DNA from: a virus
Taxonomy: Duplodnaviria; Caudoviricetes
Virus record (IMG/VR): IMGVR_UViG_3300030012_002628
Coordinates: 1 to 52,184 of that record
Length of the DNA: 52,184 nt
Reading direction: 5' to 3' (one strand)
A program made the translations under genes and the position numbers. The notes under the pieces are model-generated. The model was given only the letters and a program-made list of their open reading frames with translations, did no database searches and was not told where the DNA came from. Position 1 is the stretch's first letter. Every line of letters begins with the position of its first letter. Below are positions 22,772 through 49,151 of the stretch, piece after piece.

Positions 22772-25700
22772 ATGTCAGACCCAAGCGAAACCAAACCGAC
22801 AGGCTCATTTAACCCAACGCCATACGATATATGGGCCACTCAAAATTCCTTTGAAAATGAATTAGAGGGGAGGACTAAACACCTAGATCATCTCCGCTTA
22901 GAGTATATCAAAGCAGGGAAGTATGATGAGGAAATGGAAGGTCTTTTCCAAGAAGAGTTTGAAAACTCTTTGATCGACAATAAAATATTAGACCCCCTCA
23001 ACGAAGCAGAAGTTGGTGAAGCTGTTCTAAGTTTTTCAGGTGTTCTCCCTTCTAATGATAAAGACGTTCTTTTTATTAAGGACAACATGGCTGAAGGAAG
23101 TTCAATTATGGACTTTGAAGAAGGGGAACAGGAAAAAATTCTACGATATGCAAAAGCTTTAGAGACAGGACAGGAGATACCTGAAGACATTAATGTTAAC
23201 GAAGTTCATGAAATTGCTCGTCAAAAAAGACAGAACTTCATTACAGAATTATACGAAAACGATCAGCTAGGGGCAGGTGTTTATTACACTAAAGAAGGAC
23301 AGCGTATTTTTCTTGGTGGGAAAATTGACGAGAATTCTACGGAAGCGGATGTCCTTGAGCAAGGTAGAGATTTCGGTGTAGTCCCTAGAGATGTTTTTAC
23401 TCTAAGAAAATTTAAAGAAGTCCAAGCAGATAAGAATGGCTTGGAGTTTTATCAAGTAGATCAAAGGCAGAGGGCAGAACAAAAAATTCTTCCTTTTCTA
23501 GACCCTAAAGATGATCTCAGAGATGAAAAGATTAGAGCACGGTTTGATGCTCTCGCTACTAGCTTGGGGAAAGAGAAGTCTTGGGGTATGCTCCGCAAAG
23601 GCTTTGATTCTACTGGTGAAGTATTAACTTGGGCAGGATCAAATATAAGAGAGGGTTGGAACTGGTTGACTTTTGATGAGGAAGAAAAGAAAGAGTCTGA
23701 GGATTACCAAAGATATGAGGCTTTGCGGGAAGAATATGAGGATGAGGTAGAAGAAACAAGACAAGAACTTATAGCAGAATTATCTGAGAGAACGGGTATC
23801 CGTGGAGAAGTCTTAGAAGATGTTGTTGATGATATGGTTGTAGAGATTGCAGCCAATGGATCAGAAACTTTAGACCCTACTCTTATCTTTACGGATGATG
23901 AAGATGATCTAAAACAAAATGTTATTCGAAGAAACTACAAGGGGACTTTTGTTCAACCAGCTATGGCTCTCAAGCCAGAGATGTTTAGAAAAGCTCTTAA
24001 ACAGTCTGGATTTAGTGAGGAAGAAATTGAGATAGAGGACACAAAAAGACAGGCGGAAAACGAATTGTTAGCTTCCACTCGCAGTAAAATTTTAAGGGAA
24101 GACGAGAATTATCAAGACAAGTTTGAAGCTGCTGAATTGGATGGAAGACAAGCAGGGCTTACTCAAGCAGAGATACTTGAGAAATTTGTAAAGGAAGAAG
24201 ATCCCAACTTGGGGTTGGCGGGTATTGGTCAAAGTATTGGGCAAAGTTTTTCTACTCTATTTTACGGGGTGGGTGCTTTGTTTGGTTCGGAGTATGGAAA
24301 AGAAGGACTCCTACAGAATGCCAAAGACCAAGCTCATCTAAATCAGATGAGAGAAATCTTTGGTCAAGATGCAGGAATGGGGCAACAAATATTAGAGCAG
24401 GTTGCCCCACTTATAGTTGATGGTGCGATTACCTTTACGGCAGGGCTTCTTGCCGTTCCTTCAGGTGGAACTTCGGTAGCTGCAGCAGCGGGTTACTTCA
24501 CGGCAAAAACAAGTGCGACTGCCACAGCTAGAGCGGTATTGAAAAATACTTTTAACACTGCTTTGAAGCAGCAAATCAAACGAGATGCTTCAGGTAAGCT
24601 AATCAAAGAAACCACAGGACAAGCTGTAAAGAGATTACAGGCAGCAGGAACATTAAAAGGTTTGTCTAACCGTGAAATGATTTCTGCGGTTAAAAACTAC
24701 AACAGTAAACTAGCTAAGTCACTGGGAATTGGAACGGCTACGTTTGTTCCCGCAGCCATGCGTTCAGGTAGTATGACGTATGGTGCTGTCTACAAAACTA
24801 TAACTGATGACTTTACAAATAAGTATCAAGTTAATGGTGAATGGGTAGAGGGTTGGAGTGAAGAAAGGGTAAAAGAAGAAGCCCACAAAGCAGGTTTTGA
24901 GGCGATGATAACTGCGGGTACAACTACAGGTCTTATAACCGCTGCAATGGGTAAGATAGGTAACGGTATGTTCGGGGGTGTTGAGAATGCGTTCCTTGCA
25001 GGAGTCAGCCTTAAACAACTAAAAGTAGCTACCGATAGAATGGTGAGTCGAGTCTCTTCAGACGAGGCTTTCTTAAAGGCGATGACCGATGCTGTTGCAT
25101 CAACAATGAAAACAGGTTTGATCGGTACATCAATGCGAATAGGTAAGAGTGGTATTGGTGAAGGAATAGAAGAAGGTATTGATGAATTTGCGAACACAAT
25201 CATCCAAGACGCTTGGACAGACAAAGATACTTCTTTCTTAGAAAAAGCAACGGGTGCTTGGCATGGTGCTAAGATGGGTTTCTTTTTAGGAGCTGGTGCT
25301 CCCGCTATCAGTAAGGGTGTAAAAAACTTAGCTCCTGTAAGGGGGGTAGATGCTCAAGCTATGCAAGAAGCAGAGCAAACAGTTGATACTGAGTTCAGGA
25401 AATTGTTAAAAGCATCGGGTGATCTAGAGCGTTTTGAAGAACTAGAAGCGACAGCTCCTAACACTCATGCGGAGGTTATTAGGCAAGTTAGAGCTAAGTA
25501 CGCAAAAGAAGAAGAGGCTGAGACTGAGACAGCTCCAGACCCTGAAGAAGCGAAACCAACTGAACAGGAAGTTGCAGAAGAAGCAGAGCAGCTAAAGAGA
25601 GATCTTGAGGCAAATCAAAAAGAAGATGACAACCAAAAGATCATCAATGATTCTAAAGAAGAGGGAAGAACTAAAGCCGAATCCTCTCCTATAGTCACGG

Positions 25701-28700
25701 CTAGTGAGGCTGTTAATAGCGTTACCGAAACCGACACTAATCAGGCTTCCGCTAATGCTGATGTCACCAACAGCAATCCATCTGCTAGGCCCCCAAGAAC
25801 TCCTCAACAGAAGTATCAAGACACAGTCAATGACATAGAAGTTTTAGAAAGAAGATACAACGTACAGATGGCAGCTCTTGAAGAGCTTCCGCCAGAGTTA
25901 CGAGACAAGAGGCGAAACGAAATTGAAGCAGCAGTAAAAGCTGGTCGTATGCTTGACCCAGACACAGCAGGTGAACTTATTGCTCAAGCAAACAAAGACA
26001 GGGAAAAAGAAATAGCGGAAGAAGCTAAACCTGCCAAGGTAACAAAGAAAGATTTAGATAAGTTAGAAGAGGTAATTGAACAAGGATTCCCAGTTGCTGA
26101 TATTAAAAATCACCTAGAACAATTGGGTCTTAACCTCGAAAGAACAGATGAGAAATATCTTCGAGCTGTAGAAAAAGTAATCAAAGAACGGATTGCCGAA
26201 AGATACCCGACATTAAACCCCAAAAGACAACAAGGTGGGGTAAGACTACCAAACACTTTAGCTCCTTCGGGGACAGTCGTAATTGATAAAGACGGGCGGG
26301 GTGTATTTAATAATGATCCTGCAGGGATGCTTACTTTGTTGCAAAACAATGTTGCTATTCCTTTAACTGAAGATCAAGCGACGAACCCTAATTTAAACAA
26401 ATCATTTGTAGTAGAACAAATAGGAACTGATTACTTTGTTTCCGATATCATGATCCCTGTAAAAGGAGGACTGGTCTCGGCTAAGACTCCAGTAACAAAG
26501 ATCGCGGTTCACGAAACAAATTACACACCAGTTAAGGACAAGATAAGAAGAGTAAACACTCTTAAAAACACGGTAGATTTAAATGATGTCAAAGACATTA
26601 AGATCGTAAGCCCGTTCCGTGTTGCTTCAGGAAAGAAGCCGACAAAGATAAGTTTGGGTGAGCTTCTCGTAGAGGCTAAAAATTTACCAGCACTTAGAAA
26701 GTTTTTAGCTCAAGATTCTATACCTACTTTAAGTAAAGATTATTTAGACGCTGCTGCTATAACGATGAGTTTAGATCTGCAAGAGCAGATTTATAACCAA
26801 GCCAAATCTCTCTCCCAAACTCAACCTACCACCTCATTAAAGAAGGAGGAGAATGCACTAGCCTTTGTAAGAGAGGAATATGGATCACTATATCCTGAGT
26901 TGATAAAGGATAAGTCGATATCAGAGATTATAAATATAGGTAATGAGGTTGATGCAGGGGCAGTTCCTTTTGAGAATCTTAGTAAAGAACAAAGAGGAGC
27001 ACTCGAAATAAGAAACGCATACCTTAGATTGACTGAGCAAAGTCCATCTTTTGTTTTAAATTTAGAAACATCTGCTATCAAGAATGCTAGTTTCTTTAAC
27101 AAGGTAGAATCAGAAAGGAACTCAAAATCTATTCGTGATGTAGCCACTCTAATTGATCCCGATTCAGATATTCATAAGCGTCCAGACTTGATGGATGCAG
27201 AGAAGCAAAAAGAAGATCACTTTATCCCCCCCGCTGTTACAACGATCCCACCTATTGCGGAATCAAAACTAGCTGCTTTTATCTCTTCCAAAATTGATGA
27301 CGTAGCAACCGCGATTAGGTTAGATAGCCGTCTCCGAAGAGATGTAAAAGATCTGCTTAACAATGAGTATCATAATGGGAAGAAGGTAGCCACCAAATAT
27401 TCAGCAGAACAAGTAGCCGTAGAGCTTGTTCATTTCTTAGCTTCAAGGGGTGGAACAAATAAACCAGCATCAGTTCTAGAACAGAAACTCAGTAGCCGTA
27501 ATCTGGATGTCATTAACCCTGAATATAAGTTAGGGCAGGACATGAAAGATGCTCTTACTTTGTTGGGTGTTACCAGTCCTTCATTGCAGGGTTCGTTAAA
27601 TACCGATGCTTCCTTCTACACTTTAATAGAGTCTCAACTACAAGGATTAGTTGGGCCAGATGTCATGCTTTCGTATGGGGATGTTAAGGCTTTCTATACG
27701 CAAGTTAGAAAAGGAGCTGCTGCTTACAAGAAGAGAGCGATAAATGACGGACGCAGCAGAAGAAAGATCATCAAAGATAACCTCGAAGAGATAGATGAGT
27801 TAGGATTGCGAGATGATGATCCTCAATCTGTAATTGATGCTCTCGAAGAGATTGCTGAGTCAGGTGTTAAACCACTTAGGGTTTTAGCAAAAGCTCTACT
27901 TCGGAATAAAGACTTCATACGCTCAATAAAATTCGTCATAGACGGCACTCCTGCGGACTTTTCGGGGCTATATTATGTTGATGGTAACGGGAATAGAACT
28001 GTACTAATTAATACAAATAGGTCTGGAGCAAGAGGTGTAGCGGATACTTTAATCCACGAGTATCTCCATGCGTTTACTAATGACATTCTCAATGCACCAC
28101 CAGAAAGTAGAACACCTGCTCAGAATGAAGCAATTGCCAACCTTGAAGAGATACTGAGGCTCGCAAAAGAGAAAGCCCGTAAGTCTGGTAAAGCTAACTT
28201 AGAATATGGTACTTCAAACCTAGATGAGTTCTTAACTCATATATTAACTGATCCTCAGTTCCAAAGATTTCTCAATGGCATCATACCTGCGAAGGGTAAA
28301 CTCAACCTCTTCCAAAAAGCTATTGATGCTTTAGCTAAATTGATTCCTTTCGTTAAGAGGAAAGAATTAAAAATAGCTCTTGGGCAAGCACTTGATCTTA
28401 CTCAAAGGGCAGATATCCCACAGCCCTCAACTAAATCAGGGTTTGCGAGTCAGGTTGCAGGAAGCATTCACAGGGGTCAGTCTGAACTCCACGATATGTC
28501 TAAGGACATGGGCATGGCAGAGCAATCAGCCATCAACGAAAAGTTGGAGGAAAGGGCTAAAGAAGTTATTGAGTTTGCTATGGGTTATGTCCCAAGCGAA
28601 CTCAACATCGTTGTTGATGAAGCAAACCCAGAGATTGCTAGTGTTGATAGCACTACAGGAGCTATCGTTTTAAATCCAAAAAGAGCAGCACTCTACTTAG

Positions 28701-31700
28701 CCGAGCAAGGGGCAGATGGGATGGATGCTCAAAGGAGACAACACGCCCTTGGAATTATTATAAATAAAGCAGTCGGTAGAGCAGCAGCAGATGCGATGAT
28801 TACTGATGCTCAGTATGCAGACATAACTAAGTCCATGACGGACTCAGAATTCGAGGCAGAGATTAGAGAAAACTATCCCTTGGATCAGCAAGAAGCAGCT
28901 TTTCAAAGACTTAGAAGTTCCGACCCAGAGGTCTCTGCTACAGAGAGGTTCGACTTAGCAAAGAAAGCGATTGCTAGGCACACAGAGCTGTCCACTACGG
29001 GATCAACAACAGCTCAACAGATTGCTTTCCTTAGAACGAATCCTTCTTTGATTCCTCTATTCATAACTTACATGAAAGCCTTCCTCAGTAAACTCACATA
29101 TCACAGGACATTGAAAGATGTTTCTCCTGAGATGAGGAAAGCAGTTAATAATACTGTAAGAGAGATCAGGGCTTTGTCTCTGAACTACAGGCCCGCTGAC
29201 AGTATCATGACCCACAATCCTCGCAACCCTTATGCAGTTGTGGAGCAACTTATGCAGCAAGCTATTGATACTAATATGCTAGAGCCGACTGCTAAAACTG
29301 ATAGTGCTAGTTTACGAAATAGATTAATAGAACAAACCTCTCCTACCCCTGTTGTTTTAGGACAAGAGAGTGAGGCTCCTACCCCCGATACACCCTCTCA
29401 ATTTAGTCAAGACTCTAAGATTCCTTCTTTCCTCAACGAAGTTGAGATGCAAGAAAAGGATATTAATAACTGGCTTGAGGTGCTTGATGTCCCTCTGACT
29501 GAGTTCAGTGAAGACTACGAGTTTGATAAGATGGGCAAGATACGAAGAGGGTTATACAAAACCTTTGTGCGTAAAGCTGACAAAAGAGTTGTTAACTTCT
29601 ACGACCAGAACAAAGCCTTTGTTAGGGAGACAAAAGGTCTCGTTGAAAAGCTGCAACAGAAGCACAACAGAATACTTAAAAGAGAAAACGAAAGACTCAG
29701 CACTGTAACAGGACAAGAAACAGGGAACATCCCTGCCGAACTTATAGCTAGAGCTTCAGGAACTAACGAGGGATCAAACTTAACAGAACCTCAAAAAGAT
29801 ATTGTTGATGCAGAGTATAATGCAGCTATCGCTGAAGCTAATAGAAAGTCGGGTGCTGAAAAAGATGACGCACTTGCTCTGGCTCAGATTAAGAAAGATA
29901 AAAAGATTTTAGAACTACGGGAAAAGAATCGTAAACAACAGTTCGCTAGGAGAGATGCAGCTCTTGATGATTTGTTAAAGATATCTCCCGATATGTACAA
30001 CCTCGTTTTAGAAATGAGGCAACTTCAAGATCAGCTCTCAAAGAAGGCGATGGAAATCTTCGGGCCTACTATGAAAGAAGGAGATTTGAAGATGGCTTTT
30101 GATTTCAACAGAGGTCTGTACCTGACTAGGTCATATAGAATGTTTGAAGACCGTAACTTTGCCAAACAAGTTAAAGAGTCTGATGAATATGCGGATGTTC
30201 GTGAACGAGCAGCAGCTTACTTCTTTGAGCAATTGAAGAAACAAAGAGTTCAGCAGTTGCAGGATACTGAAGCTCTAACTAAAGAGCAAGCTGAAGCTAA
30301 AGTGAGGGATGAAATGGTTGCTAAAAATACTAAAATGCAATCACAAGCCTCCGCTATGGTGGACGATTTCATCGACGGATATGCACGGGCGGAAGCCAAA
30401 AAGAAGTTTGAGCAATCGCAACGAACATTCGGGGAGCAGGATTTAGTGTTACAGGATGCAGGATTCAGTGAAACCGATCCCCTTAAAAAGATTGTCGAAT
30501 CAATCAATGATAAGAAAAACATACCTGAACCCATCAGGGAATTACTCGGAGAGTATGGAGAAGACACAGGCATTTATAATCTCAGCTACTCTCTGAACCA
30601 CACAGCTAGTTTACTTTCTAATCAGGCGTTCTTTAATAAACTCAAAGCATTAGGGACTGGCGTTAATCCAGAGACTGGGGAAGTCGAATCTGATAATCCT
30701 TGGATGGTTAGTTCAGAACAATATTTTGAAGACAGAGCGAGACCAAAAGCAGATAGAAAATATTCTGGTTGGGTAGAGCTAGTTGATCTAAGTAGTGAAA
30801 CTAATCCCCTAGCAGGGATGTATGTCCCAGAACAAGTGGCCTCCAACATAACAGATCTTTTGGGTGGCAAGAAGAAAGCGGACATCACAGATCCACTGAA
30901 TGAACGGGCAGAATTGCAGGGGAAAATAATGCGAGGAACTAAAAAAGCGGTGGGTCTATCCCTTGCTTACAAGACGCTTGGGTCTCCTGCTTTCTACATA
31001 AGAAACATAATTGGTAACGCTTTGTTCTTCGGGCCTATGCAAGGGTATCCTGCTCATAGAGTTATGGGAGATCTCTTCAAGGATGTTAAAGGAGCTAATG
31101 TTCCTTACCTTACTAAAAACCCTGACTCTATTTTCTACCAAGTAGGGGGGTCAGAGTTGAGTTTCAAACTAATGGAACTTAGATCTAGAAATGTTTACGG
31201 TGATGAGCTTGAAGTTTCACAACTCCAAGACCTGTTGGAGGGAAAGACATCCTACGCAAGTTTGCAAAAGGATCTGGATAAAGTAGCAGCAGCCTCTAAT
31301 TTTATTGCGGGTCTTAATAAGAAGAAAGGGCCTATCAAAGTTCCAGAGGAACATATCGAAACCTTGGCAAAGTTGGGGGTCAATGTGACTTCAGCGGGGC
31401 TTCTTCCATTCAAAGCAATTAAAGAAGCGAACGCAATACTTCTACAAACAGGTGGAAAACTTGCTTCTGCTGCTGATGGTTTCTTCAAAGTTGGTCTCTA
31501 TGATTTCGAGATGCAGACTTTAACTAAAGCTGCAAAGCACGAGATAGAAAAGGGTGAGATTAACGGAAAGTATGCAAAGCTCTTAGATGAGAATGGGGAA
31601 CCTACTAACACCATGAAGGACATGGCTGCGAATATCGTAAAAGATACAGCTCAGTCATACAGTAGGGCCTTACCGATTATCAAAGATTTAACAGATAGTA

Positions 31701-32833
31701 ACATCGCAATTGCCATCGCTCCTTACGTTCGATTCGCAGCAGATATCCCAAGAGTTTTTGTTAACGGAATCTTTAGAGGAGCTAAAGAAGTTGCGAGTGA
31801 TAACCCCGAAATTGCGAAGAGAGGACGTAGGCGGATGAGGGGATTAATCACAACAACAACACTTAACATCGGCCTTACTAAAGGAACCCAGATGCTTCTT
31901 TGGGGAATAGATGACGAAGACGAAGCCAAAGCATTCCGTTCAATGGTTCCTAAATGGATGAAAGATGCGGGTATTCTTGTATGGAGAGATGATGATGGGG
32001 CAACATGGTCAATTGATATGACTTACCTAAATCCGTTTGCCATCATCCAAGATCCTGCTGTTAGAGCTTTTGAAATGTTAATGAGAGGAGAGGGAGCTGG
32101 AAAGGCTTCACTCGAATTCATGAAACTATTCTTAAAGCCTTACTACAGTGAGCAAATTTTAACGGGGGCTATGGTTGATGCCTTCACAAATGAAGACCAA
32201 TATGGTAGACCAATCGTATTGGATGGAGAGGAGGACTGGCTCAGTAGAAAAGCTAGTTACGTCTTTGAGAAAGCATTTTCTCCTAGATCTCTCATGTCTG
32301 CTGATCAGGCGTATGATGCTTTCCTGTCCAAAGAATCAACAGGGAACTTCTTTGATACAGCTTTCGGTCACTTGATGAAATCGATAGTCCCATTTCGAGC
32401 GCACAAACAAGATTTCGTAACTGGATTTAATAGATTCCTGATTGCACATCAGGAGAACTACAGGAACAACAACAATATGTTTAGTAACAAAGTGGGGCAG
32501 CAAGGAATTCTATCAGACAAGGCTTTGTATAAAGCCTATGATAGATACTACAACAGTAGGATGCTCTCAAACAATGAGTTCAAACAAATTGTAAGAGGCT
32601 TTGAAAAGCTAGGGCTTGATCAAGGACAGATCGAACGCCTAGCTAAATCAAAAGGGGTAAGCAAAGAAAGACTACAGCTAAACCGCCAAGGTTATATGAA
32701 CCGCCCTATATTATCTAAGCCTCTTGAGAGAAGGTTGGTGGAAGAAAACCCTAACGGGTTGAGTAGGCTAAGAAAGCTAAGGGCGTATATAGAAAAAAAG
32801 AACACAGAACCATACATCAACATAGATAAATGA
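22772..32833 (+). CDS. Giant internal virion / large polyvalent protein with zincin metallopeptidase domain
   Basis: 3353 aa; Gly/Ala-rich membrane-type helices and GEGIEEG motif in the N-terminal third; TLIHEYLH...NLDEF...DPQFQ. Confidence 0.75.
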   Translation: MSDPSETKPTGSFNPTPYDIWATQNSFENELEGRTKHLDHLRLEYIKAGKYDEEMEGLFQEEFENSLIDNKILDPLNEAEVGEAVLSFSGVLPSNDKDVLFIKDNMAEGSSIMDFEEGEQEKILRYAKALETGQEIPEDINVNEVHEIARQKRQNFITELYENDQLGAGVYYTKEGQRIFLGGKIDENSTEADVLEQGRDFGVVPRDVFTLRKFKEVQADKNGLEFYQVDQRQRAEQKILPFLDPKDDLRDEKIRARFDALATSLGKEKSWGMLRKGFDSTGEVLTWAGSNIREGWNWLTFDEEEKKESEDYQRYEALREEYEDEVEETRQELIAELSERTGIRGEVLEDVVDDMVVEIAANGSETLDPTLIFTDDEDDLKQNVIRRNYKGTFVQPAMALKPEMFRKALKQSGFSEEEIEIEDTKRQAENELLASTRSKILREDENYQDKFEAAELDGRQAGLTQAEILEKFVKEEDPNLGLAGIGQSIGQSFSTLFYGVGALFGSEYGKEGLLQNAKDQAHLNQMREIFGQDAGMGQQILEQVAPLIVDGAITFTAGLLAVPSGGTSVAAAAGYFTAKTSATATARAVLKNTFNTALKQQIKRDASGKLIKETTGQAVKRLQAAGTLKGLSNREMISAVKNYNSKLAKSLGIGTATFVPAAMRSGSMTYGAVYKTITDDFTNKYQVNGEWVEGWSEERVKEEAHKAGFEAMITAGTTTGLITAAMGKIGNGMFGGVENAFLAGVSLKQLKVATDRMVSRVSSDEAFLKAMTDAVASTMKTGLIGTSMRIGKSGIGEGIEEGIDEFANTIIQDAWTDKDTSFLEKATGAWHGAKMGFFLGAGAPAISKGVKNLAPVRGVDAQAMQEAEQTVDTEFRKLLKASGDLERFEELEATAPNTHAEVIRQVRAKYAKEEEAETETAPDPEEAKPTEQEVAEEAEQLKRDLEANQKEDDNQKIINDSKEEGRTKAESSPIVTASEAVNSVTETDTNQASANADVTNSNPSARPPRTPQQKYQDTVNDIEVLERRYNVQMAALEELPPELRDKRRNEIEAAVKAGRMLDPDTAGELIAQANKDREKEIAEEAKPAKVTKKDLDKLEEVIEQGFPVADIKNHLEQLGLNLERTDEKYLRAVEKVIKERIAERYPTLNPKRQQGGVRLPNTLAPSGTVVIDKDGRGVFNNDPAGMLTLLQNNVAIPLTEDQATNPNLNKSFVVEQIGTDYFVSDIMIPVKGGLVSAKTPVTKIAVHETNYTPVKDKIRRVNTLKNTVDLNDVKDIKIVSPFRVASGKKPTKISLGELLVEAKNLPALRKFLAQDSIPTLSKDYLDAAAITMSLDLQEQIYNQAKSLSQTQPTTSLKKEENALAFVREEYGSLYPELIKDKSISEIINIGNEVDAGAVPFENLSKEQRGALEIRNAYLRLTEQSPSFVLNLETSAIKNASFFNKVESERNSKSIRDVATLIDPDSDIHKRPDLMDAEKQKEDHFIPPAVTTIPPIAESKLAAFISSKIDDVATAIRLDSRLRRDVKDLLNNEYHNGKKVATKYSAEQVAVELVHFLASRGGTNKPASVLEQKLSSRNLDVINPEYKLGQDMKDALTLLGVTSPSLQGSLNTDASFYTLIESQLQGLVGPDVMLSYGDVKAFYTQVRKGAAAYKKRAINDGRSRRKIIKDNLEEIDELGLRDDDPQSVIDALEEIAESGVKPLRVLAKALLRNKDFIRSIKFVIDGTPADFSGLYYVDGNGNRTVLINTNRSGARGVADTLIHEYLHAFTNDILNAPPESRTPAQNEAIANLEEILRLAKEKARKSGKANLEYGTSNLDEFLTHILTDPQFQRFLNGIIPAKGKLNLFQKAIDALAKLIPFVKRKELKIALGQALDLTQRADIPQPSTKSGFASQVAGSIHRGQSELHDMSKDMGMAEQSAINEKLEERAKEVIEFAMGYVPSELNIVVDEANPEIASVDSTTGAIVLNPKRAALYLAEQGADGMDAQRRQHALGIIINKAVGRAAADAMITDAQYADITKSMTDSEFEAEIRENYPLDQQEAAFQRLRSSDPEVSATERFDLAKKAIARHTELSTTGSTTAQQIAFLRTNPSLIPLFITYMKAFLSKLTYHRTLKDVSPEMRKAVNNTVREIRALSLNYRPADSIMTHNPRNPYAVVEQLMQQAIDTNMLEPTAKTDSASLRNRLIEQTSPTPVVLGQESEAPTPDTPSQFSQDSKIPSFLNEVEMQEKDINNWLEVLDVPLTEFSEDYEFDKMGKIRRGLYKTFVRKADKRVVNFYDQNKAFVRETKGLVEKLQQKHNRILKRENERLSTVTGQETGNIPAELIARASGTNEGSNLTEPQKDIVDAEYNAAIAEANRKSGAEKDDALALAQIKKDKKILELREKNRKQQFARRDAALDDLLKISPDMYNLVLEMRQLQDQLSKKAMEIFGPTMKEGDLKMAFDFNRGLYLTRSYRMFEDRNFAKQVKESDEYADVRERAAAYFFEQLKKQRVQQLQDTEALTKEQAEAKVRDEMVAKNTKMQSQASAMVDDFIDGYARAEAKKKFEQSQRTFGEQDLVLQDAGFSETDPLKKIVESINDKKNIPEPIRELLGEYGEDTGIYNLSYSLNHTASLLSNQAFFNKLKALGTGVNPETGEVESDNPWMVSSEQYFEDRARPKADRKYSGWVELVDLSSETNPLAGMYVPEQVASNITDLLGGKKKADITDPLNERAELQGKIMRGTKKAVGLSLAYKTLGSPAFYIRNIIGNALFFGPMQGYPAHRVMGDLFKDVKGANVPYLTKNPDSIFYQVGGSELSFKLMELRSRNVYGDELEVSQLQDLLEGKTSYASLQKDLDKVAAASNFIAGLNKKKGPIKVPEEHIETLAKLGVNVTSAGLLPFKAIKEANAILLQTGGKLASAADGFFKVGLYDFEMQTLTKAAKHEIEKGEINGKYAKLLDENGEPTNTMKDMAANIVKDTAQSYSRALPIIKDLTDSNIAIAIAPYVRFAADIPRVFVNGIFRGAKEVASDNPEIAKRGRRRMRGLITTTTLNIGLTKGTQMLLWGIDDEDEAKAFRSMVPKWMKDAGILVWRDDDGATWSIDMTYLNPFAIIQDPAVRAFEMLMRGEGAGKASLEFMKLFLKPYYSEQILTGAMVDAFTNEDQYGRPIVLDGEEDWLSRKASYVFEKAFSPRSLMSADQAYDAFLSKESTGNFFDTAFGHLMKSIVPFRAHKQDFVTGFNRFLIAHQENYRNNNNMFSNKVGQQGILSDKALYKAYDRYYNSRMLSNNEFKQIVRGFEKLGLDQGQIERLAKSKGVSKERLQLNRQGYMNRPILSKPLERRLVEENPNGLSRLRKLRAYIEKKNTEPYINIDK

Positions 32834-46260: not shown

Positions 46261-47472
46261 ATGAGTGAAGAAACTGCTGTAGAAGCAACCGACCCTGTAG
46301 AAGCACTGCCAGAAGAGCAGCAAATGGATTTTAGTTCAGCACTAGATGCTGCGTTTGCAAAACTTGAAAATCCAGAACCTGATCCAGAACCAGAACCAGA
46401 GGCAGAAGTAGAAGTAGAAGCCGAGGGTGAGGAAACTCCTGAAGCAGAGGTTGAAGAGGTTGAAGAATCTAATGAAGAGGAAGCAGCGGAAGAAACTTCA
46501 GAGACTACAGAAGAGGAGGAGAAGTCTGAATCCTTTGACCCGACCGATGATCTTGAAGCCGAAGTCGGGGATGATTGGACACCCAAAGCAGCATCACGTT
46601 TTAAAAAGCTCAAAGCAGAATTAAAAGCGTCCACAGATGAATTAGAATCGTTGCGTCAGCAATTAGCTGAAAATGAGAGCAAGGTTAAAGAACTGACTGG
46701 GGCTGTAGAATCAAACGATATTGAATCTCTTCAAAAAAAGTTAGCTGAGTATGAGAGTGAAAAAATGTTTACGAATCTTGAAGATACGGAAGCATATAAG
46801 ACTGCAGTTACGGAGCCTTTAGACAAACTTATTGATACGACTCGTGAAATTGCGGAGAAGTATGATGTTAGCCCTGATGAGTTGGTAGATGCTCTAGCCA
46901 TTCAAGATGCTTCTGAGCAAGACGAAAAGCTAACTGAGCTATTAGTGGATGCTACTGATAGAGATCGTGCAAAGGTGTATCGTGTAATTGAAGACATTTC
47001 CCCTATCCTTGAGAAAAGAGCCTCTATGATGGAGAATGCTTCAGAGGCTTTGAATGAGGCAAATGCTGCGAAAGAAAAAGAAATTGAAGTCCAAGCTGCG
47101 GAAAGGGCTAAAGAAAGGCAGAATGCAGCTAGAAACGTAGTTGCTAGGGTTCAAAAGAAGTTACCTTTCTTGAGTGGTATTGAGGGTTTGGACATGAAAG
47201 CCATTCAAGAAAAAGCAGCAGAAGTAGATCCTTCTGTAATTCATCCTGTGGACTACACTTACAATTCAGTAAGTGCTCAGATTTTACCCGCCATAATTAA
47301 AGAATATGTAGGTATGAGGAAAGAAAATGAGGTTCTTACAGATAGATTGGCTGAATATGAGGAGGCAGAACCATCTATGTCAGGCTCATCACCGTCTACT
47401 AAGACCGTTGACGATAAACTTTCTTTTGAAGATAGGATCGAAGCTGCTTTTGCAGGTGCTCTGGGGCAGTAA
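46261..47472 (+). CDS. Capsid scaffolding protein
   Basis: Very acidic N-terminus plus coiled coils, directly upstream of the major capsid gene. Confidence 0.75.
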   Translation: MSEETAVEATDPVEALPEEQQMDFSSALDAAFAKLENPEPDPEPEPEAEVEVEAEGEETPEAEVEEVEESNEEEAAEETSETTEEEEKSESFDPTDDLEAEVGDDWTPKAASRFKKLKAELKASTDELESLRQQLAENESKVKELTGAVESNDIESLQKKLAEYESEKMFTNLEDTEAYKTAVTEPLDKLIDTTREIAEKYDVSPDELVDALAIQDASEQDEKLTELLVDATDRDRAKVYRVIEDISPILEKRASMMENASEALNEANAAKEKEIEVQAAERAKERQNAARNVVARVQKKLPFLSGIEGLDMKAIQEKAAEVDPSVIHPVDYTYNSVSAQILPAIIKEYVGMRKENEVLTDRLAEYEEAEPSMSGSSPSTKTVDDKLSFEDRIEAAFAGALGQ

Positions 47473-47483
47473 ATATTCGTGCA

Positions 47484-47512
47484 TTGACAACTATAGATAT
47501 TTAAATTATTCT
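47484..47512 (+). promoter_or_regulatory. sigma70-like capsid promoter containing one palindrome arm
   Basis: TTGACA-N17-TATTCT; 47487-47500 ACAACTATAGATAT is identical to 42932-42945. Confidence 0.75.
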
Positions 47513-47517
47513 AAGTT

Positions 47518-47682
47518 TATAGTCACAGTTGGTTGCTCTAGCCATAAATAGTTCTATTACCTGTTTCTATACCAGATCGAGCTGAGTCTCATCGAACAAA
47601 CCGTTAGGTTGCTCTAACCTTAACTAGTTCTATCGCGGTTTGCCTAAGACAATTTAGCAAGTCCCACTTTTTTTTGGGGCTT
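47518..47682 (+). ncRNA. Candidate structured 5' leader RNA with two repeated units
   Basis: 27-nt direct repeats at 47531-47557 and 47607-47633, each enclosed by a different outer stem; extra hairpin at 47659-47682. Confidence 0.65.
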
Positions 47683-47715
47683 AAATCTATTAACAAAACT
47701 TAACTATTATTTATT

Positions 47716-49089
47716 ATGGCTAGAAATGCAGTAGCGGGCGATTTCGCATCAGCGAGTAATGTCGCCATTAATACTATCCTCGCAGAGGAAGCAAATCGTA
47801 TTGGAGCTGATGTGCATACACGTATGATGCACACATCTCCTTGGATCGATCTTGTTAAAAAATCAACATTCCCAGAGGGAATGGGATATCAACTCACTAC
47901 TCTTATTTATGATCGTAGTCTCCCGACTACTGATGTCACAGGTAATGCAGTGGGTGTAAACTGGAACAACATCGCAACACTTCAAACTGGAGCAAGCGCA
48001 CTCGGAACATCAGTATTGGATCAGCCTCTTGATACTACAGCCGACAATGTGCAAGCTGCTAACGGAGGAGCCACCAACACAGCAGGAGACAGTCTTTCTG
48101 GTCTTGGTGGAACTGATGCTCGTAACTTTGTAAACTTCGGTAAGAAGCTCAAAGCATACAGCATTCAGCGTGCGATCATCGAATCACCCCGTATCAATGT
48201 TGACGATCTTCGTTATGCAGCACATCGTCAGGAGCAGCTTCGCGCTATCCTTGATAGTCTTGCAGAGTCTACTCGTCATTCATGGGCCGAGCGTTATCGT
48301 GATGAGTATGACCGTCTTGTAGATAACACTGTTATCTGCCGTGGTGATGCGACTAACGATGCTGGAAACCCAACTGAGTTCCTTGCTTCCAACGAAGGTC
48401 AGACTACTGATGCCCTTGGTGCAGCAGGAGGAGATCTCGACGGTGGTGGGGCATCTAAAGTTAAGAGTGACATTTCTAATGCCGTTCTTGATAAGATCTA
48501 CTTCAAGATGATCCGTGGTGGAGCATCAGCAGATGCGTATGGCCGTGAGAATGGCCGTCCAGTATTTGCACTTGTTTGCTCTTCTGAGGCATCAAACACC
48601 ATCATGAAAGAAGATGGGTTCCGTGACGATATTCGTTACAACAACGCTCGCGTTGGCGACCTTATCGCTCCACTTGGTGTTGAGAAGTCCTTCCGTGGTT
48701 TCTACCACTTGATCGACGATCTTGCACCTCGTTACAAAGATGGAAATGAAGGAGATCTTGTCCGTGTTGAGCCTTACACAAGCTCAAACGGTATTGCTAC
48801 TCCTAACGCTGAATATGACAATGCAGCTTATGAGGTTGCTTACGTTCTTCACCCATCAGTGTATGAGTCCCAGATTCCTGCACCATTCGGTGGAGCTAAC
48901 GGAGTGACCTTCAGCCCAGTTGATTATTCTGGTGAGTTCAAGTGGACTAACATCCTTAGTGAGACAACTAACCCAGACGGCACAATCGGATTCTTCCGTG
49001 GAATCCTCGCTGCTGCTTCCAAGCCAATTAAGACTGAGCTTGGTTACGCTATTGTTTACAAGCGTACTGGACTTCCAGCGAAGGTATAA
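47716..49089 (+). CDS. Major capsid protein
   Basis: 457 aa; follows portal and scaffold; strongly biased codons (CGT, CTT, TTC); terminator downstream. Confidence 0.85.
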   Translation: MARNAVAGDFASASNVAINTILAEEANRIGADVHTRMMHTSPWIDLVKKSTFPEGMGYQLTTLIYDRSLPTTDVTGNAVGVNWNNIATLQTGASALGTSVLDQPLDTTADNVQAANGGATNTAGDSLSGLGGTDARNFVNFGKKLKAYSIQRAIIESPRINVDDLRYAAHRQEQLRAILDSLAESTRHSWAERYRDEYDRLVDNTVICRGDATNDAGNPTEFLASNEGQTTDALGAAGGDLDGGGASKVKSDISNAVLDKIYFKMIRGGASADAYGRENGRPVFALVCSSEASNTIMKEDGFRDDIRYNNARVGDLIAPLGVEKSFRGFYHLIDDLAPRYKDGNEGDLVRVEPYTSSNGIATPNAEYDNAAYEVAYVLHPSVYESQIPAPFGGANGVTFSPVDYSGEFKWTNILSETTNPDGTIGFFRGILAAASKPIKTELGYAIVYKRTGLPAKV

Positions 49090-49109: not shown

Positions 49110-49151
49110 AGCGGGGGTGGCGGTCTACGGATCTCTGCCCCCGCTTTACTT
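49110..49151 (+). terminator. Intrinsic terminator after the capsid gene
   Basis: AGCGGGGGTGG...CTGCCCCCGCT stem followed by TTACTT. Confidence 0.7.

Follow-up and report, generated by a model that had tools for sequence, protein, structure and literature searches.

The 52,184 bases of the virus record IMGVR_UViG_3300030012_002628 (Caudoviricetes), a record rated 88% complete, were analysed over their whole length (the window). In the 243-nt intergenic gap between a 403-residue open reading frame (ORF; 46261-47472) and a 457-residue ORF (47716-49089), the latter identified below as the capsid gene, there are two similar RNA units, and each of them almost certainly consists of an outer stem (P1) enclosing an H-type pseudoknot, since the triplets predicted to form its second stem (CUA of the loop with UAG) compensate each other's changes. 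On comparative sequence evidence, this tandem pseudoknot is a new RNA family of a generally known kind, which is widespread in uncultured N4-like ocean phages. A two-unit structured RNA on the + strand of the capsid leader had been proposed from the sequence alone (the original prediction), and it is confirmed by the repeat, by covariation among relatives and by the HK97 fold of the downstream product. The parts of the units, including the inner stems S1 and S2, the loop L1 and the linker L3, are the following:

47518..47571, + strand: unit 1 (match to R1, a one-unit covariance model, at 47521-47568, 43.6 bits, E 6e-9; covariation in P1 and S2)
47518-47522/47567-47571 (TATAG/CTATA) and 47525-47528/47561-47564 (ACAG/CTGT), + strand: outer stem P1 of unit 1
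47531-47533/47541-47543, + strand: S1 of unit 1 (GGU/GCC), with L1 (UGCU) at 47534-47537
47538-47540/47549-47551, + strand: S2 of unit 1 (CUA/UAG), with the A-rich L3 (AUAAA) at 47544-47548
47552-47556, + strand: invariant tail of unit 1 (UUCUA)
47597..47642, + strand: unit 2 (match to R1 at 47596-47643, 31 bits; covariation as for unit 1)
47597-47604/47635-47642 (CAAACCG(T)/(G)CGGTTTG), + strand: P1 of unit 2, with S1 (GGU/ACC) at 47607-47609/47617-47619
47614-47616/47625-47627, + strand: S2 of unit 2 (CUA/UAG), with L1 (UGCU) at 47610-47613
47620-47624, + strand: L3 of unit 2 (UUAAC), with the tail (UUCUA) at 47628-47632

The two units share a direct repeat of 27 nt (47531-47557 and 47607-47633), 24/27 identical (89%), whose copies lie 76 nt apart. 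With up to three mismatches allowed, this 27-nt unit occurs at exactly two sites in the window; 100 shuffles contained no copy. The closing stems listed above, which had been part of the original prediction, are present, and minimum-energy folds use them. Single-sequence folding gives z-scores of -0.82 for the whole gap and of -1.4 and -2.5 for the units, which are not significant alone; because the folding energy is unremarkable, the structural case is made by comparison.

P1 was assessed in a model-fitted alignment of 92 units (82 distinct) against shuffles and against controls in which the partner strand was slid. The stem comprises 7-8 pairs, each with changes on both sides, and 90.5% of its alignment cells are paired, compared with 66.3% after shuffling. 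Its covariation score is 0.457 versus 0.114 in shuffles, none of 500 shuffles reaches it, and sliding the partner by 1-3 columns leaves at most 0.115; the covariation was repeated on a second alignment set. Since a model-fitted alignment leans towards the model, an alignment-free test was added, in which the mean duplex energy of the true 5'/3' flanks was -8.4 kcal/mol over 43 distinct pairs and -7.3 kcal/mol over 38 pairs; exchanging the partners among phages weakened these means to -4.2 and -4.4. The longest contiguous P1 helix has 3-11 pairs over 91 distinct units. That the outer stems differ in sequence, as first noticed between the two units, thus extends to the relatives, where P1 varies yet stays paired.

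The pseudoknot can be followed in a common numbering of the hairpin (G1 G2 U3 U4 G5 C6 U7 C8 U9 A10 G11 C12 C13) and of the second block (U1' A2' G3' U4' U5' C6' U7' A8'). S1 pairs G1-U3 with G11-C13, S2 pairs C8-A10 with U1'-G3', L1 is formed by U4-U7, and S2 adjoins S1 with 0 nt in between. S1 is crossed by an A-rich linker, which measures 5-7 nt, or 15-21 nt with an inserted hairpin in one divergent group, and the conserved UUCUA connects S2 back to P1. S1 (GGU/GCC) is nearly invariant, and its pairing is kept in the variants GAG/CUC, GGC/GCC and U-A, a U-A pair also standing in unit 2 of the window in place of the U-G of unit 1. This U-G/U-A difference had been noticed correctly in the original prediction; a second pair change claimed there, U-A for A-U at the base of the inner stem, does not hold, as that position is paired in 36/88 distinct units where 25 are expected from base frequencies, and the pair is not conserved.

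Positions 8-10 and 3'-1' change jointly in divergent leaders. The S2 triplets are complementary in 118 of 122 pattern-matched units from 77 distinct capsid-anchored leaders, and they fall into six types (CUA/UAG 88, CUG/CAG 15, CCG/CGG 7, CCA/UGG 6, UUG/CAA 1, UCG/CGA 1); the remaining four units look like pattern artefacts. Pair 10-1' is AU in 77, GC in nine and GU in one of the units of alignment A6, and it is never unpaired there. Five leaders have unlike units, and in these S2 pairs within the unit in 10/10 cases and across units in 5/10. RNAalifold, applied to a MAFFT alignment, missed P1 and paired the two UAGUUCUA blocks with each other; this pairing was rejected because the unlike-unit leaders lose one or two of its six pairs, while the pairing within units always holds. 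The sequence of the GCUCU loop that had originally been described is therefore kept, but it is not a plain loop: its CUA is half of the S2 helix, and UAGUUCUA is not free. The fourfold occurrence of GYTCTA (47535, 47551, 47611, 47627) was also seen correctly and is a by-product of the pseudoknot, the first copy in a unit being L1 plus strand a of S2, and the second the tail together with the base that ends strand b of S2.

About 12 unpaired bases are invariant among phages whose capsid proteins are 51-73% identical. G5 C6 U7 and U4'-A8' are the same in all groups, apart from a few unit-1 variants, whose rare tails end in UUCAG, UUUUA or UUCCA, and from L190 and L192, two leaders that have GUU for GCU and UCCUA for UUCUA in both units, though their stems, S2 and linkers differ. 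Position 4 follows pair 10-1', with C4 beside G-C in 10/13 units and U4 beside A-U in 74/85 (Fisher p 5e-6, uncorrected for relatedness), which may reflect either a different closing pair or U.A-U / C+.G-C triples. The U-G wobble of S1 is conserved in 80/88 units and G-U pairs are frequent in P1, so the structure is one of the + strand only.

Such leaders recur among the relatives of the window phage. A protein-based search yielded two IMG/VR relatives whose leaders contain both units, the promoter described below, and flanks that differ yet are complementary. A two-unit DNA pattern was found at 55 IMG/VR loci, of which 54 are homologous leaders and one (L144) is a chance match in coding-looking DNA without an R1 match. 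Of the 77 IMG/VR contigs that contain a strict one-unit pattern, 51 have two exact copies of it and 26 a single one. It is also present, in two copies each, in five short contigs binned into metagenome-assembled genomes (MAGs) of four unrelated phyla; a loose one-unit pattern gave chiefly chance matches. The five binned contigs (L173-L177) are 3-29 kb long and come from Acidimicrobiaceae, Opitutae, Blastopirellula and Verrucomicrobiales MAGs; they are most likely misbinned phage contigs and, because the phyla are unrelated, give no clue to the host. R1 detects exactly two units in 46/46 loci and none elsewhere in 491 kb, two units in 28/28 further loci, and two in the window. A capsid-anchored search, which is independent of the RNA, returned 158 relatives, of which 80 were kept with 77 distinct leaders. 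By a relaxed pattern, 51 of these leaders have two units, 17 one, one three and eight none, and the most distant relatives have other leaders. The units sit directly 3' of the conserved promoter and 5' of the capsid gene, and they were not found away from it. Homologous leaders with covariation, for which a covariance model and a virome search had been proposed as a check, are therefore numerous.

In a divergent group (L203, L206, L207, L215, L224 and similar), some 100-250 nt ahead of the capsid start, unit 1 is kept with a linker of 15-21 nt containing an extra hairpin, and unit 2 is replaced by another pseudoknot-like module, GGCC(C/U)AUGCGCC ... (C)GUGUAUUCUU. The loop of this module and a stretch downstream of it are complementary over 5 nt in L210.

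The Rfam and Infernal check that had also been suggested gave no family match for the leader. With the 4227 models of Rfam 15, positions 46500-48500 of the window gave two chance-level matches at E<=10, none of them in the + strand leader, and ten homologous loci (33 kb) gave one match at E<=1, which lies outside the leader. The 13-mer of the unit is absent from the literature searched. Objects of the same kind had been predicted from the same data source, IMG/VR, in a survey described in excerpts of Fremin et al. 2023 (PMC10690425): the candidate structured RNAs reported there number 10,006, and five lie upstream of a T7-type family of major capsid proteins. No motif like the tandem unit is named in the excerpts, and it may be among the unnamed candidates.

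The product of the 457-residue ORF is, according to structure modelling, an HK97-fold major capsid protein. AlphaFold2, given an alignment of 100 diverse relatives, produced a model with a predicted local distance difference test score (pLDDT) of 81.6 and a predicted template modelling score (pTM) of 0.80. Foldseek compared this model with the PDB and returned 245 matches at E<=0.001, the top one being the phage N4 capsid (9e99_A, E 4.8e-10, probability 1.00), followed by the capsids of the N4-like phages DEV, Moo19 and B2; all matches listed are phage or archaeal-virus head structures. With 25 close relatives as input, AlphaFold had given a poor model (pLDDT 50), for which Foldseek returned only suggestive matches, none at E<=0.001. 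Sequence profiles gave nothing relevant in Pfam (also for 25 and 100 family members), PHROGs or the PDB profiles. Since the ORF is identified as a capsid protein by its fold, the label "capsid leader" is correct. The protein family is very large: among 8000 candidates scored, 1523 clusters reach E<=0.001, and a profile search yields 547 representative clusters. Among the 120 members listed, "hypothetical protein" is the sole source annotation, and none has a Pfam domain; the fold thus gives a large family of unnamed marine proteins an identity as HK97-type major capsid proteins.

The capsid gene looks like a transcription unit of its own, because it has its own promoter, a long leader, and a terminator-like hairpin:

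47484..47512, + strand: sigma-70-type promoter (TTGACA 47484-47489, 17-nt spacer, TATTCT 47507-47512; consensus scan, 10/12 positions)
47579..47590, + strand: middle hairpin between the units (GAG / CUGAGU / CUC)
47659..47682, + strand: last hairpin of the leader (AAGUCCCA / loop CUUUUUUU / UGGGGCUU, arms AAGTCCCA/TGGGGCTT; dG -9.9, z -3.16)
47683..47715, + strand: AU-rich stretch without a Shine-Dalgarno sequence ahead of the start codon (read from the sequence)
47716..49089, + strand: major capsid protein gene, 457 residues, predicted HK97 fold (AlphaFold2 and Foldseek)
49111..49144, + strand: terminator-like GC-rich hairpin (GCGGGGG...CCCCCGC, then UUUACUU) just past the capsid gene (dG -28.1 for a 79-nt stretch)

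The promoter places the transcription start near 47519, from which the leader would measure about 196 nt, in good agreement with the length of roughly 195 nt given originally. The sigma-70 pattern has three matches in the window against 2.9 expected, without enrichment, so that support for the promoter comes from its conservation in relatives. Among 29 representative leaders (clusters at <=90% identity, drawn from 51 leaders), the -35 hexamer has TTG in 29/29, A in 28/29 and C in 28/29, and a TAAnnnT-like -10 element comes 16-17 nt past it; hexamers, spacing and conservation are those of a sigma-70 promoter. From the hexamer to the unit-1 core there are 45-56 nt, and because this distance is fixed, the inferred start coincides with the foot of P1 of unit 1. 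At the other end, a GC-rich inverted repeat follows directly on the capsid stop codon in 25/25 loci with a complete ORF, as judged by eye; this strong hairpin with its short run of U looks like a conserved terminator that would make the capsid gene monocistronic.

Transcript evidence comes from contigs of two RNA libraries of one sample, in which ends, strand and level are not readable and DNA carry-over is possible. The contigs span the capsid ORF, and one of them (237 nt, 2 differences) corresponds to 47584-47817, thus including unit 2, the last hairpin and the start codon; a second one starts at 47680, the end of the last hairpin, though contig ends are unreliable. The cover leaves out unit 1, the flanks 46502-47503 and the region beyond 49351, and such missing cover carries no weight. 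A start site downstream of the repeats had been named as the observation that would refute a leader RNA, and the contig from 47584 speaks against a start 3' of both.

The middle hairpin, of the form GRG-C(U)NNGN-YYC, is present in 21/29 representatives and absent where the spacer between the units is 27-32 nt; its stem alternates between GGG/YCC and GAG/CUC, with two-sided changes at two of three pairs. The last hairpin, the further hairpin AAGTCCCA/TGGGGCTT of the original prediction, is indeed present at 47659-47682, but it is optional in relatives. It was detected in 26 of 28 analysable representatives, with none in L115 and L040 and only -1.4 kcal/mol in L127, and because it is absent or weak in some relatives it is dispensable to the units. 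It begins 24-34 nt past unit 2 in most representatives, ends a median of 32.5 nt ahead of the AUG, and in 19/26 is C-rich in the 5' arm and G-rich in the 3' arm. At least five U are found in the following 8 nt in only 5/26, the tail in the window being AAAUCUAUU, and the GC-rich stem directly followed by a U-tract that defines an intrinsic terminator is not what is seen at 47659-47682; a canonical intrinsic terminator was rejected for the lack of the U-tract in most and of the hairpin in some. Shine-Dalgarno sequences are absent from most genes of the window phage (start regions of 39 ORFs), the capsid gene included. AACUUU or UUAACUU stands close upstream of the AUG in the capsid leaders of many relatives, which we take to be reminiscent of the "epsilon" enhancer of T7 gene 10.

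Regarding function, the two-domain leader is tentatively read as a cis-acting, factor-binding element that may set the translation or stability of the capsid mRNA. The RNA would act in cis at the 5' end of this mRNA (the first 125 nt of the leader), and its invariant unpaired bases (GCU in L1 and UUCUA past S2) would present two like binding surfaces to one trans-acting factor. This factor would most likely be a protein; the phage might encode it, as unassembled capsid or as an assembly protein, or it might be a conserved protein of the host. Its occupancy would set the amount of capsid protein through the stability or the translation of the mRNA. One partner reading two sites is suggested by L190 and L192, which share the same paired change in both units. 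Masking of the start codon would not be the way in which the element acts, since 80-190 nt separate the domains from the AUG.

The pseudoknot in the leader of T4 gene 32 is an autogenous translational operator. It, too, lies in a phage leader at a good distance from the start codon, and the stretch between the two is AU-rich and unstructured. In contrast to it, the capsid leader has two pseudoknots with invariant cores, no sequence similarity to the gene 32 leader and no known binding protein, and its gene product is a capsid rather than a single-strand-binding protein. The T4 gene 32 mRNA leader pseudoknot is among the RNAs named in excerpts of the IMG/VR survey (PMC10690425). The element shares its layout with this leader and with small pseudoknot aptamers, exonuclease-resistant RNAs (xrRNAs) and put/nut sites, and the defining features of none of them are found in it.

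Several points weigh against a factor-binding element. The neighbouring proteins are acidic and not RNA-binding-like (isoelectric points of 4.17, 4.99, 5.88 and 4.07). The domains are clear of the start region, and the distance from unit 2 to the AUG ranges from 45 to 122 nt; because this spacing varies and the domains do not overlap the start, simple occlusion is ruled out. In the window, the units are tied to the start codon solely by an 11-nt perfect complement between the unit-1 core (47537-47547) and the capsid start (47714-47724), and this pairing is not conserved, amounting to 4-8 nt in 27 other representatives. A small-ligand pocket or purely tertiary contacts would explain the invariant unpaired bases equally well, and the shared change in L190/L192 might reflect gene conversion of one unit by the other, or else an internal compensating swap (C.U to U.C). 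The units form a compact, strongly covarying RNA with about 12 invariant unpaired bases, ahead of the gene for which a phage needs its heaviest expression, and, whatever they bind or resist, they point to an undescribed layer of late-gene control in N4-like phages. Domains of about 45-55 nt each are, moreover, suited to structure determination, to ligand or protein fishing, and to use as portable expression parts.

A different explanation needs no factor. The two compact pseudoknots, at the 5' end of the late mRNA that is needed most, might themselves stop the 5'-to-3' exonuclease RNase J or the 5'-end-dependent scanning of RNase E, much as Xrn1 is stopped by tandem xrRNAs; the RNA's own tertiary fold would then be what the invariant bases serve. 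This is unlikely, but several observations suit it. The domains are a tandem pair of pseudoknots at the extreme 5' end of the inferred transcript, they are seemingly insensitive to the distance from the AUG, and the last leader hairpin is dispensable; the capsid gene has a strong 3' hairpin too, so that both mRNA ends would be structured, and the tracking of position 4 with pair 10-1' would suit U.A-U / C+.G-C triples that stiffen the fold. On the other hand, an exonuclease would meet the ordinary helix P1 first, a simple 5' hairpin is the usual protection of bacterial mRNAs, and the identical change in both units of L190 and L192 better suits a shared partner. The xrRNAs of flaviviruses and plant viruses, as described in excerpts of PMC5760640, resemble the units in their tandem copies, compact pseudoknot fold, conserved tertiary bases, covarying helices and placement upstream of the RNA to be kept, and one of two tandem flaviviral copies also blocks the bacterial RNase J1, such structures being possibly more widespread (PMC5760640). 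The capsid leader differs from them in kingdom and enzymes, in the lack of an Rfam match and in the ordinary helix that closes each domain. The pseudoknotted, often tandem fold is found in the units. What further defines xrRNAs is a ring around the 5' strand and the stalling of 5'-3' exonucleases.

Improbable as well is a tandem riboswitch, in which each pseudoknot would be a small-molecule aptamer tuning capsid expression. Helices that covary about unpaired, invariant bases, together with an A-rich strand over S1, are typical of small pseudoknot aptamers, and there are two like domains in tandem and, downstream, a GC-rich hairpin with C-rich 5' and G-rich 3' arms in 19/26 representatives. The preQ1-I, SAM-II/V and tandem glycine aptamers resemble the units in their short covarying S1 and S2, in the A-rich strand over S1, in unpaired bases that do not vary, and in the occurrence of two like domains within a 5' leader. 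In comparison with small aptamers, the units have the extra stem P1, no visible competing platform, a capsid gene downstream and no match to a covariance model. With respect to preQ1-I, the H-type pseudoknot in which an A-rich strand crosses stem 1 is present (linker of 5-7 nt), but the interhelix loop with the C that pairs with the ligand is missing, since strand a of S2 abuts strand b of S1, and so is an Rfam match. No Rfam riboswitch model matches the units, no expression platform competing with P1 was seen, and there is no Shine-Dalgarno sequence to sequester. The downstream hairpin lies about 25 nt from unit 2, is without a U-tract in 21/26 and is missing in some relatives; the controlled gene is structural, not metabolic, and the most conserved bases are altered in L190/L192. 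Should this improbable case be true, widespread lytic marine N4-like phages would have an undescribed riboswitch class, sensing for example a nucleotide-pool or stress signal. A small molecule would then time or dose capsid production, in what would be the first riboswitch known over a virion structural gene.

Control of elongation can be given only a small chance. The nascent tandem structure would act on its own RNA polymerase, as put does, or bind a phage antiterminator, as nut does, and transcription would then pass the leader hairpin, the post-capsid terminator or both. HK022 put and lambda nut (boxA-boxB) are likewise structured RNA modules just past a phage promoter, and the two modules here start at the inferred transcription start, right after a strong conserved promoter, a resemblance in layout only. 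RNA polymerase as a universal partner would account for the invariance across phages, such an action would not depend on the distance from the AUG, and hairpins follow in the leader and past the gene. However, the leader hairpin would be a poor terminator (at least five U in the next 8 nt in 5/26, and two further representatives without the hairpin), and the conserved strong terminator after the capsid gene would be pointless if the transcripts of this promoter ignored it. The boxA element, to which NusB-NusE binds in nut and rrn leaders, has the conserved single-stranded consensus UGCUCUUUAACAA. Only UGCUCU of the unit agrees with its start, and the next bases differ; the boxA-like bases are partly paired and variable, positions 8-10 pairing in S2 and varying through the six compensated types, and a boxA mimic was rejected on this ground.

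It is very unlikely that termination or processing at the last hairpin frees the leader as a stable small RNA in its own right, with a trans or structural role such as a host-factor sponge or an assembly/packaging RNA. Promoter, two-domain RNA and hairpin do resemble a small-RNA gene of about 165 nt, and one RNA-library contig starts at the hairpin end (47680), with the caution about contig ends given above, but the other continues across the hairpin and enters the ORF. Some relatives lack the hairpin or have only a weak one, U-tracts after it are rare, no other capsid promoter was seen between it and the AUG, and the element was never found apart from the capsid gene. Phages host many of the known small ribozymes. 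A pair of new self-cleaving ribozymes that trim the mRNA 5' end, to which tandem small pseudoknotted motifs with invariant cores in a phage genome might point, is more improbable still, as no Rfam ribozyme model matches and nothing marks a cleavage site. The identical 13-nt and 8-nt blocks beside the promoter might be protein sites, but operators or a single-stranded DNA structure are scarcely credible when three helices covary while their sequences drift, the G-U pairs (S1 U-G in 80/88) are C-A mismatches on the opposite strand, and the units lie 3' of the promoter within an RNA-library contig. A CRISPR-like array would have identical repeats, unrelated spacers and no pairing across the repeat, which is not what is found; a mini-CRISPR or repeat mimic was rejected, given that the flanks of each unit pair and covary, the linker length varies and there are always exactly two units.

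Upstream of the leader lies the following gene:

46261..47472, + strand: gene of a very acidic scaffold-like protein, 403 residues (ORF list)

Its product has an isoelectric point of 4.17, with D and E making up 108/403 residues, and its composition and its place between a portal-sized ORF and the capsid gene suggest a scaffold; extreme acidity is common in scaffolding proteins. The portal-sized, 98-residue, scaffold-like and capsid ORFs have no matches in Pfam or PHROGs. Among 50,697 phage records, neither the leader nor the 457-residue and terminase-like proteins had a blastn or tblastn match, and the DNA polymerase of the window phage had matches of at most 30% identity. An ORF of 3353 residues (22772-32833, + strand) is without a Pfam or PHROGs match; its size is reminiscent of the N4 virion RNA polymerase, of which it may be a counterpart, the best fold matches of the capsid being with N4-like phages. 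Within the acidic scaffold-like gene, short contigs from all four sequencing runs are stacked at 46372-46407 with a very high summed depth, each carrying 2 differences; the pile-up is probably a low-complexity Glu/Pro-coding repeat common to other organisms. On the - strand, the ORF at 40267-41235 matches the ArdC N-terminal domain and a zincin-like metallopeptidase domain, as well as a PHROGs anti-restriction family.

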